Assembly (NCBI GenBank): GCA_951406725.2 | Contig: OX597836.1 | Location: forward strand, 13,516,001 to 13,580,000 | Reading direction: 5' to 3' | Length of the DNA stretch: 64,000 nt | Source of the DNA: Octopus vulgaris | Taxonomy: Eukaryota | Shown here: piece after piece, positions 346 to 61,692 of the stretch | How positions within the stretch are numbered: position 1 is the stretch's first letter | Layout of the letters: every line of letters begins with the position of its first letter | Program-made: the position numbers and the translations under genes | The notes under the pieces: model-generated | The model's input: only the letters and a program-made list of their open reading frames with translations | Told to the model about the DNA's origin: nothing | The model's database searches: none

Positions 346-636
346 ATGAAAAGCAGAGTTGATCTCGGCGGAATTTGAACTCAGAACGTAACGGCAGACG
401 AAATACCTATTCCTTTACTGCCCACAAGGGGCTACACACAGAAGGGAAAAACAAGGTCGGGCAAAGAGATTAAGTCGATTACATCGACCCCAGTGCGTAA
501 CTGGTACTTAATTTATCGACCCGAAAGGATGAAAGGCAAAGTCGACCTCGGCGGAATTTGAACTCACAACGTAACGCAGACGAAATACCGCTACGCATTT
601 CGCCCGGTGTGCTAACGTTTCTGCCAGCTCGCCGCC
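346..636 (-). mobile_element. SINE family A (408-636) plus a partial second copy (346-407), inverted relative to 98-328
   Basis: Reverse complement matches the family A head, B box and tail. Confidence 0.9.
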
Positions 637-974
637 TTAACACAGATTGGAATGATGATATGCAAATTATTCCGTGATACATCTCCGCAAGAGACGTAAT
701 CGATTCCATTGGCCTTCAGCTCCCAGTGGTATTGAGAGAAGGAGAGAGAGAGAGAGTGAGAGAGACAGGGGGAGAGAAAGAGAAAGAGCGGTGGAATTAA
801 CTCTGTCTCTCTGTGGTTTTAAAGCAACGCAAGTGCTGTGTGTATCCGGTCTCGTAGGAAGACGAGAATCGTGACATTTTTGCATATTCTTCCCTGACCG
901 GAGTGAAGGGTATTTAAGATAACACTGACATTTCTTCATGTCAAACATAAAAAAAAGAAACTGCTCCCCCCCAC

Positions 975-55182: not shown

Positions 55183-56326
55183 AATGGTTTAACAGATAGA
55201 ACTCAACGAGGAGAAAAGTTAGACAAAAGCAGAGCAAACGGGAAACTAGACGAAAACTTAACAGACAGGAAATTTAGAGCAAGACACAATACACGGAATA
55301 TTCGCAGCTGAATTTTCTTTGGCAGTCAATGACCCAAAATATCATTGTAGTTTCGTGCCATTACCATTGAGACCACTCAATCTTGGAGGCGCCAGTGCTG
55401 TTATTAAGCTACTGAGAAAAAGCTACTGAATGTATACTAAGACAGAAACAAACAAGACATTATATAAGTACAACAAACGAAGAATTAAGCATATATAACA
55501 GCACGAAGCCTTACGACTATATACAACAGAAGAAAAGAAATAATAATATTCTACAATACAACAGAAAGAGGTTTGCAGCAATCGAACGAACTTGGGGTTG
55601 CGCAAAATGAAATGGAGTAATTCCTAATGGACGTAGCAGGAGCCCAGACCAGCATAACCAGTCTGGTCAAAGACAAGCCGAAAAAGAACAACACCGCCTT
55701 CAGTGGACGCCGGCCACGTGGTAGGGAAGAGGAAGTATTGAGGGAGGGAAAGAATGGGAGACAGAGAGAAAGAGAGAGAACAAAGGATCAGAGGGACTGG
55801 AGAAACAGAGTGAAAGAGAAGAGAAGAGAAAGGTACAAGGGAGGCAAGCAAGGGTGGAAAGAGAGGGTGAAAGAGGAAAAATAGATCGAGTAAGAGTAGA
55901 GGGGGAAAGAGATAGAGTAAAAAGGAAAGAGGGGGACAGAAAGAGAGAGAACAGAAATGGAGACAGAGAGAGAAGAGAAAGGTACATGTGTGGCAAGCAA
56001 GGGCGAAAAAGAGAGAGTAAGAGTGGAGAAAGAGATAGAGATAGAGTAAGAGTAGAGAGAGTTAAATGTCACACAATAAATATTCAAGGAATATTTTTTA
56101 CAATTAAGTAAGTAAACAGGGTGAGCGTTGCACTACATGGATGTATCATGGGTTGAACAGACAGAACACAAGGAGGTAAAGGTAGACGAAAGCAGAGCAT
56201 ATATTCCGTGTATCGCGTCTTTGTCTATATTACTCGTCCGTTAAGTTTTCGATCAGTTTCCCGTTCTTTTTGCTTTCGTCTAAATTTTCCTCCTTGTGTT
56301 CTGTCTGTTCAACATTTGATGTATCC

Positions 56327-56557
56327 TATTTCTTTATTGCCCACAAGGGGTTAAACACAGAGGGGACAAACAAGGACAGACAAACGCATTAAGTCGATTA
56401 CATCGACCTTAGTGCATAACTGCTACTTAATTTATTGACCCCGAAAGGATGAAAGGCAAAGTCGACCTCGGCGTAACTTGAACTCAGAACGTAGCGGCAG
56501 ACGAAATACCGCTAAGCATTTCGCCCGGCGCGCTAACGTTTCTGCCAGCTCGCCGCC
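56327..56557 (-). mobile_element. SINE A, full length (3' part of the tRNA-SINE chimera)
   Basis: A-family sequence whose tail abuts the TSD. Confidence 0.92.
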
Positions 56558-56571
56558 TTAAAAAAGTTAGT

Positions 56572-56644
56572 AGGTTCCAGCGAGTTTCGAACTCACGACC
56601 TTCTGCGTGTTAAGCAGATGTGATAACCACTACACCATGGAACC
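56572..56644 (-). tRNA. tRNA-Val (anticodon AAC), probably a retroposed copy
   Basis: GGTTCCATGGTGTAGTGGTTATCACATCTGCTTAACACGCAGAAGGTCGTGAGTTCGAAACTCGCTGGAACC. Perfect 7-bp acceptor stem, TCTGC/GCAGA anticodon stem, T-arm TTCGAAA, and T6 at 56560-56565. Confidence 0.88.
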
Positions 56645-56682
56645 TGATGTATCCATGTAGCGCAATGCACACCCTGTTTATT

Positions 56683-56998
56683 TAGAGCGTCGAGCTTACG
56701 ATTGAGAGGTTGTGAGTTCGATTCCCGGACCGGGCTGCGTGTTTGTATTCTTAAGCACGACACGTTATTTCACGTTGCTCCAGTCCACTCAGCTGTAGAA
56801 ATGAGTTGTGACATCACTAGTGCCAAGCTGTATCGGCCTCTTTGCCTTTCCCTTGGAAACATCAGTGGCATGGAGAAGGAGAGGATAGCATGCATGGGCG
56901 ACTGCTGGCCTCCCATAAACAACCTTGCTCGGACTTGTGCCTGGCAGGGTAACTTTCTAGGAGCAATCCCATGGTCATTCAAGACCGAAGGGGGTCTC
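56683..56998 (+). mobile_element. SINE C (5' end clipped)
   Basis: Homology to other C copies. Confidence 0.88.
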
Positions 56999-59730: not shown

Positions 59731-60126
59731 CCATTAAAATTATTTCATAAATTGTGAAATATGTGTTTTTGAGATCACATGTATGCTGTAGTGTGCATCC
59801 ACCCTTAGGGGTTAGCCATATTCAAATGGCAAATACGCGTCACGATATTTTGTTATATTTGTCTATATATCCAACTGTAAACATTTTAAATATTTCACTA
59901 ACTGTTTGTGATAACTTGGTAAAAGAGTACATATTTTGCCGGCTTCTTCTCTAGTCTGCCGGGGCCGACTTTACCTTTCATCCCTTTGGGACCAATAAAA
60001 TAAGTACCACTGGGGTGAGAGAAGACGATGTAATCGACCTAACCCCTATCCTGAAATTTCTGGTTCTGTGCCAAAATTTGAAACCATTACTATTACCAAC
60101 GCAGCGAACTAACAGAATCGTTTGCA

Positions 60127-61221
60127 GGCGGCGAGCTGGCAGAAACGTTAGCACGCCGGGCGAAATGCTTTGTGGTATTTCGTCCGCAGCTGCGTTCTGA
60201 GTTCAAATTCCGCCGAGGTCGACTTTGCCTTTCATCCTTTCGGGGTCGATAGATTAAGTACCAGTTACGCACTGGGGTCGATGTAATCACTTAATCCCTT
60301 TGTCTGTCCTTGTTTGTCCCCTCTATGTTTAGCCACTTGTGGGCAATAAAGAAATAATAATAATAATTACTATTATTATTATTATGGCAATGAGCTGACA
60401 GAATCATTTGCATACCAGGCGAGCTGGCAGAAACGTTAGCACGCCGGGCGAAATGCTTAGTGGTATTTCGTCCGCCGCTGCGTTCTGAGTTCAAATTCCG
60501 CCGAGGTCGACTTTGCCTTTCATCCTTTCGGGGTCGATAGATTAAGTACCAGTTACGCACTGGGGTCGATGTAATCACTTAATCCCTTTGTCTGTCCTTG
60601 TTTGTCCCCTCTATGTTTAGCCACTTGTGGGCAATAAAGAAATAATAATAATAATTACTATTATTATTATTATGGCAATGAGCTGACAGAATCATTTGCA
60701 TACCAGGCGAGCTGGCAGAAACGTTAGCACGCCGGGCGAAATGCTTAGTGGTATTTCGTCCGCCGCTGCGTTCTGAGTTCAAATTCCGCCGAGGTCGACT
60801 TTGCCTTTCATCCTTTCGGGGTCGATAGATTAAGTACCAGTTACGCACTGGGGTCGATGTAATCACTTAATCCCTTTGTCTGTCCTTGTTTGTCCCCTCT
60901 ATGTTTAGCCACTTGTGGGCAATAAAGAAATAATAATAATAATTACTATTATTATTATTATGGCAATGAGCTGACAGAATCATTTGCATACCAGGCGAGC
61001 TGGCAGAAACGTTAGCACGCCGGGCGAAATGCTTAGTGGTATTTCGTCCGCCGCTGCGTTCTGAGTTCAAATTCCGCCGAGGTCGACTTTGCCTTTCATC
61101 CTTTCGGGGTCGATAGATTAAGTACCAGTTACGCACTGGGGTCGATATAATCGACTTAATCCCTTTGTCTGTCCTTGTTTGTCCCCTCTATGTTTAGCCC
61201 CTTGTGGGTAATAAAGAAATA
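60127..61221 (+). repeat. Tandem array of four SINE A copies (288-bp period) inside an older SINE A
   Basis: Near-identical 288-bp units. AGAATCGTTTGCA duplicated at 60114-60126 and 61222-61234. Confidence 0.93.
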
Positions 61222-61692
61222 AGAATCGTTTGCACGCCTGGCAAAATGCTTAGGGGCATCTCGTAAGTTCTGAGATAAAATTCCACCGGGGTCGCCTTTG
61301 CCTGTCATCGGGGTCCATGAAATAAGTACCAGTTGAGCACTTGTTGGGGCTCGATACAAGTGACTTAACCCTACCCCCGAACTTACTAGCCTCGGGGCCA
61401 AAATTTGAAATCAATATATAACGTACATTTGCTGCCGGCCATATTTGTGCTTGCAAAGATGTTTGCGTTACCTAAATACGGACCAATTCTAAAAAAACGT
61501 CGGTGTCGAATTCTGCGATAGAGGAGAATGGTATTAGAATGGTTTAGCTTATGGGTGGCGGTGATGGTAGGAGTGTGGCTAGCTCAGACTTCTCCTAGGC
61601 TCTGACTTACGAGAAAGATTCAGCAGTTAAAACAGATTGGATGTTTTGCGTTGATTTATATCTCTCTACTACATGTGTGTGTGTGTGTGTTT

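Follow-up and report, generated by a model that had tools for sequence, protein, structure and literature searches.

Results

The insert analysed here lies in a window of 64,000 nucleotides of Octopus vulgaris DNA (contig OX597836.1, positions 13,516,001 to 13,580,000 of the forward strand) and is bordered by the word TGATGTATCC, for which an exact search of the window gave two matches and no more, 56317-56326 and 56645-56654. In shuffled sequence the word occurred 0.26 times on average, and 2 of 100 shuffles reached two occurrences anywhere, with no requirement that they lie at the insert borders. The two copies constitute a 10-bp target-site duplication, identified as an exact repeat and from copies of the host repeat, with one copy at the 5' end of the insert (56645..56654) and the other at the 3' end of a SINE (56317..56326). 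Between them, all on the minus strand, are a tRNA-Val(AAC) of 73 nt that includes the discriminator U and has no CCA (56572..56644, detected by ARAGORN), a pre-tRNA 3' trailer of 6 bases (56566..56571), a run of six T's (T6) that copies the Pol III terminator or oligo-U tail and forms the junction to the SINE (56560..56565), and a full-length, tRNA-headed SINE of 233 nt (56327..56559). This arrangement had been proposed in a sequence-only reading of the same DNA, and both the TGATGTATCC pair and ARAGORN bear it out; the trailer named there is present as well, except that its first T is discriminator base 73, a base common to clustered tRNA-Val genes. The tRNA is identical at 73/73 nt to those clustered genes, which are located on another contig and also have T at base 73 (40 of 233 candidates were scored, and 30 of these were compared). 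In this large cluster (L003-L030, contig C25), Val genes with the anticodons AAC, CAC and TAC share nearly one body sequence, with U at position 73.

The head of the SINE has 54,140 exact matches genome-wide, and at 13 of 230 sites the focal copy lacks the base that most of 50 copies share. It may be a CORE-type SINE like OR2, an octopus tRNA-derived CORE SINE named in PMC4758252, the family name being a lead only. A second partial unit directly follows the SINE at window positions 408-638 and 96-328, in L039, L041, L042, L046 and L051, and in 6 of the loci L201-L230. These second units begin at the same internal word and affect many SINE copies, which may reflect a subfamily built in tandem or else successive jumps from one SINE RNA to the next. 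At 60125-61341 the window also contains four copies of this SINE arranged in tandem and separated by a common spacer, with a period of approximately 288 bases.

The insert interrupts a host repeat, one part of which lies to its left (56200..56316, plus strand) and the end of which continues to its right (56655..56685, plus strand). A second, inverted end of the same repeat, previously described as a fold-back arm, occupies 56105..56199 on the minus strand, so that the window holds two host repeat ends in inverted orientation. Among 19 other copies of the host repeat, 7 run through the target site, and all 7 carry a single target word leading directly into the sequence found to the right of the insert; the remaining 12 break off into microsatellites at the target site. 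In L075, the variant of the target word is the one present in both focal duplicates. None of the 19 loci contained a tRNA detectable by ARAGORN; natural tRNAs in other copies of the host element had been named in the sequence-only reading as a finding that would refute it. Because through-running copies carry the word once and without a tRNA, the focal 10-bp duplication is real. Words like the core of a hammerhead ribozyme occur in L065-L083, upstream of the part that matches window positions 56200-56326. They may hint at a Penelope-type terminal repeat.

A pattern combining the end of the tRNA-Val with the start of its trailer had three matches genome-wide, namely the focal insert, L002 and L033. 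L002 is located on the same contig, approximately 880 kb from the focal insert, and is a complete tRNA-Val gene with a T7 terminator, whose trailer differs from the focal trailer at one base, the last. No SINE head was found within 1 kb downstream of it. Because its trailer is almost identical and no SINE follows it, L002 or one of its alleles is likely to be the template gene of the focal tRNA. A source locus of this kind had been predicted for a template switch from the SINE to a pre-tRNA. The T-run of L002 is followed by an A, which could also be the first A of the SINE. L033 contains a 3' fragment of the same tRNA with its trailer, fused to a different repeat, and is a second chimera with this trailer. 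A further match of the exact trailer pattern (L031) contained no tRNA and was discarded as a chance match.

The 5' junction was also informative. On the minus strand, the last five bases of the focal duplication are the same as the end of the L002 leader, and among 34 distinct perfect Val(AAC) contexts compared, this leader end was present in two, the focal insert and L002. The simplest reading is that the 5' end became attached through microhomology to a leader that was still uncut, with no need for an RNase P step. The sequence-only reading had the tRNA start exactly at G1 and suggested a 5'-processed template. The start is as described, but its meaning is ambiguous, and a 5'-processed template is unsupported because those five bases match the leader of the source gene. 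In addition, a Glu(CTC) chimera (L053) is the same as a SINE-free cluster gene (L180) throughout its trailer and shares 4 bases of that gene's leader. In an Arg chimera (L146), no more than 2 of the extra 5' bases agree with the leader of any of six genes compared, with no clear match, and leader retention therefore rests on L053 and the focal locus.

Genome-wide searches placed the focal insert in a larger class. A pattern consisting of a T-loop, a gap, TTTT and the SINE head had 28 matches, a looser pattern without the T requirement had 72, and reversed-pattern controls had 0. After 12 looser-pattern matches were dropped because the match string was unlike a tRNA end, and one duplicate was merged, 68 distinct loci were examined and classed by ARAGORN, Rfam and alignment, with the final call made by hand. 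Of these, 33 consisted of a tRNA, its trailer and the same SINE, and they represented 15 tRNA types (Glu 9, Asp 5, Val 3, two each of Thr, His, Ser and Gly, and one each of Lys, Phe, Ala, Trp, Gln, Arg, Asn and Leu). All 33 extend beyond base 73 into the trailer, and many are 5'-truncated. The focal insert is therefore one member of a genome-wide class of at least 33 fusions, about 0.06% of the 54,140 exact SINE heads, which is a lower bound; the patterns need an intact SINE head and see the sense orientation only. One Glu chimera (L127) lies between two tRNA-Ala-like genes (Rfam tRNA matches, isotype by eye).

Duplications were accepted at 9 bp or more if exact, or at 11 or more with one mismatch, and had to end no more than about 9 bases from where the tRNA begins. 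By this cut-off, 19 of the 33 chimeras have a duplication around both parts that ends at the tRNA start, whereas 100 shuffles of the downstream flanks gave a mean of 0.35 and a maximum of 2. Among these, L118 consists of an (AT)n stretch and L058 fits a SINE-only duplication equally well. A SINE-only duplication accounts for at most 1 of the 33 chimeras, compared with 10 of the 35 other loci examined. In 7 of those 35 the duplication surrounds a longer, non-canonical insert. A T-loop-like word that is not part of a canonical tRNA was seen just 5' of the SINE in L041, L048, L128, L139, L147 and L153; all of these except L041 have a duplication around both parts. The absence of a duplication passing the cut-off in the other 14 chimeras would be compatible with two successive insertions, in which a pre-tRNA retrocopy arrived first and a SINE later entered its T-run, or the reverse. 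At the focal locus, however, the 10-bp duplication encloses both parts, none encloses the SINE alone, and the host paralogues show a clean single target, which makes such a history extremely improbable. The proposal that tRNA and SINE were retroposed there as one unit is supported.

A joint transcript could in principle have arisen if a SINE had landed behind the terminator of a tRNA gene and been transcribed with it, since Pol III can read through short T-runs. Two loci might be viewed in this way, L058, where a SINE may have entered the trailer of a tRNA, and L127, with its position within a tRNA-Ala cluster. However, the only gene with the focal trailer, L002, lacks a SINE head in the 1 kb downstream, as does the Glu(CTC) source gene, T6 separates the two parts at the focal locus, and SINE-only duplications are nearly absent from the chimeras. 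Moreover, one trailer is fused to several different repeats, and read-through would therefore need many separate source loci. We regard this explanation, which the sequence-only reading had offered as one of two routes, as largely refuted and very improbable.

The tRNAs captured in this way appear to be precursors. An exact pattern that joined a T-loop, CCA and the SINE head had no match genome-wide, and hence no fusion of a CCA-ended mature tRNA was found. Among 18 chimeras found without the T requirement, 14 had at least three T's near the junction, whereas for unselected SINEs the figure was 9 of 30 (p=0.002); at four or more T's the enrichment was gone (3 of 18 versus 4 of 30, p=1). Other small RNAs were found in the same position. 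Among the 30 best U6 loci, three continue past their T's into the same SINE, two of them with visible 14-bp duplications. By eye, most of these 30 loci (L084-L113) are chimeras with several different recurring repeats, and U6 retrocopies therefore outnumber apparent U6 genes.

A non-tRNA RNA of approximately 90 nt, with a terminal stem and a B-box-like word, was observed at L037:1444-1540 (plus strand) and in its relatives L192-L195. Of these five loci, four are fused to the focal-type SINE with different junctions, and one is an A-tailed copy with a duplication. Its layout may be that of a vault-like RNA. A genome search found no source gene for it, no Rfam family was assigned to the L037 or L041 inserts among 150 of 160 matches listed (E up to 0.1, 16 loci), most of which were microsatellite miRNA noise, and nothing relevant to such a vault-like RNA was found in the literature, as judged by title. 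A tRNA-like segment with a T-run was seen within a longer repeat family at L134:1518-1620 (minus strand) and in its relatives L232-L245 (45 matches, with 40 of 71 candidates scored). The segment was captured once by the focal-type SINE and once by another repeat, and these two captures with different partners therefore suggest that it is transcribed by Pol III.

A new composite SINE would be expected to have many copies that share one junction and differ in their duplications, and to lack a Pol III terminator between its modules. The full focal tRNA-SINE junction is single-copy genome-wide, no amplification was seen, and T6 lies between the modules; the focal insert was accordingly rejected as a new composite family. 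The earlier suggestion of such a family fared no better among the Glu chimeras, where those with one trailer have unrelated SINE bodies. The Glu(TTC) trailer has 15 matches, of which five are fused to the same SINE and most others to several other repeats; no recognisable native gene was found among them, and hence no source for the six Glu(TTC)-SINE chimeras (the five and L156). These six vary in the number of T's and in where they are truncated, and the divergence among their SINE bodies is 0.097-0.129, with an all-pair median of 0.10. Since the junctions differ and the SINE bodies are as different as random pairs, we conclude that they are independent captures.

The features expected of a chimeric retrogene were found at the focal locus: one target-site duplication encloses tRNA and SINE, the tRNA lies 5' of the SINE in the same orientation and is joined to it directly at the RNA's 3' end, and the tRNA probably comes from a separate gene without a SINE (L002, one trailer base different). 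On the criteria examined, the locus fits a chimeric retrogene and not a composite SINE. It also has features of a functional tRNA gene, namely an intact cloverleaf, an internal promoter and a terminator, with complete sequence identity and T6. The tRNA parts of 18 chimeras differ at 32 of 1168 sites, a rough rate of approximately 2.7%, and 0 changes in 73 would have a probability of 0.13 at this rough rate and 0.014 at the SINE rate; the perfect tRNA sequence is therefore no evidence for purifying selection. The focal copy could be usable as an ordinary tRNA gene.

Discussion

The reading that we consider probable is that a LINE reverse transcriptase, having reached the 5' end of the SINE RNA, switched to the U-tailed 3' end of an immature pre-tRNA. 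Target-primed reverse transcription from the 3' end of the element is established for LINE-driven elements, and copying would have started at the SINE 3' end in this manner. At the SINE 5' end the enzyme may have added an untemplated base, likely A, which would have paired with the U that ends a nascent Pol III transcript. A non-LTR reverse transcriptase adds untemplated bases at the template end, and in vitro a one-base overhang selects the next template according to its 3' base (PMC8594491). We propose that an added A would select U-ended Pol III precursors. The next template would have been the pre-tRNA of L002 or of its allele, a match seen in the gene and presumed for the RNA. The cDNA end may then have been attached to the target via the five bases shared with the tRNA leader, in which case the template had probably not yet been cut by RNase P. 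The whole entered the host repeat in one insertion, as the 10-bp duplication indicates, and the genome holds the products of at least 33 such events, which involve 15 tRNA types, in addition to those with U6. With T6 copied along, Pol III would stop short of the SINE, so the focal copy should not spread as a unit, and ordinary tRNA gene activity would be possible.

An alternative, which we consider unlikely, is that the RNAs were joined first, by a ligase such as RtcB linking the pre-tRNA 3' end to SINE RNA, and then retroposed. The fusion of U6 to the same SINE fits this idea, and a ligation product would look alike, in the sense orientation and with one duplication, so that genome sequence alone cannot separate a jump from ligation. 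The tail of a nascent pre-tRNA carries a 3'-OH, and a full-length SINE RNA made by Pol III has a triphosphate at its 5' end; such RNAs should lack the ends that ligation requires. RtcB makes human U6/L1 chimeras with 4-6 T's at the junction, but the reaction requires a 2',3'-cyclic phosphate and a 5'-OH, and in that study 0 of 26 full-length products were obtained when the partner had a 5'-triphosphate, while U6-OH yielded few (PMC6789731). Several of the chimera junctions described here also carry extra bases (source genes were checked for some of them only), which argues against simple joining. Since the captured RNA is a U-tailed precursor and was never CCA-ended in our search, jumping and ligation can be distinguished by test.

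Our preferred reading, a jump between templates, has precedents. Published U6-SINE chimeras include U6/Mon-1 in the platypus and U6/AnolisSINE2 in the anole (Doucet et al. 2015, PMC4476161), which were attributed to template switching. As described in the available text, these are like the octopus fusions in having a U-tailed Pol III RNA in sense before a SINE, often 5'-truncated, with one duplication; they differ in that here the RNA is a pre-tRNA with its trailer, of 15 amino-acid types, in an invertebrate genome, and in that the duplications are 10-19 bp, compared with 1-9 bp in the platypus. Human tRNA/LINE-1 chimeras also have a tRNA and a retroelement inserted together, with duplications of 9-19 bp, but the 21 reported are mostly antisense tRNA halves attributed to twin priming (PMC13174262), whereas the octopus tRNAs keep the 3' end and trailer, although our patterns see the sense orientation only. 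The terms 'pre-tRNA' and 'trailer' have 0 occurrences in the available text of that study. The RtcB-dependent U6/LINE-1 chimeras share the T-run at the junction, the sense orientation and the single insertion (Moldovan et al. 2019, PMC6789731), but the partner there is a 5'-truncated L1 and the donor has a cyclic phosphate, rather than a full-length SINE and a pre-tRNA. Retropseudogenes of pre-tRNAs and tailless tRNAs are known (Schmitz et al. 2004, cited in PMC4476161; Noll et al. 2015, PMC5322556), and there too a precursor tRNA served as template; in the available texts these are stand-alone copies, not fused by a U-tail to a SINE. We found no description of sense, trailer-bearing pre-tRNA–SINE chimeras, mainly in open papers without supplements, and an earlier description is possible.

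SINEs are thought to gain and swap their tRNA heads by template switching of the reverse transcriptase (PMC4476161, PMC4758252). Single, unamplified intermediates of a head swap are rarely seen, and dozens are readable here with their junctions, two of them with source genes. As a tentative and possible, but not the most probable, view of the whole set, the reverse transcriptase may routinely capture nascent U-tailed Pol III transcripts and ignore mature tRNA, and the chimeras may be fossils of the step by which SINEs acquire new heads. Junctions with few T's would then be would-be SINE founders, and those with a full terminator, such as the focal one, would be newborn, putatively working tRNA genes; the set may also record unannotated Pol III RNAs, including the vault-like RNA without an Rfam match. 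Such fusions would offer a route for tRNA genes to move through the genome together with their terminator.
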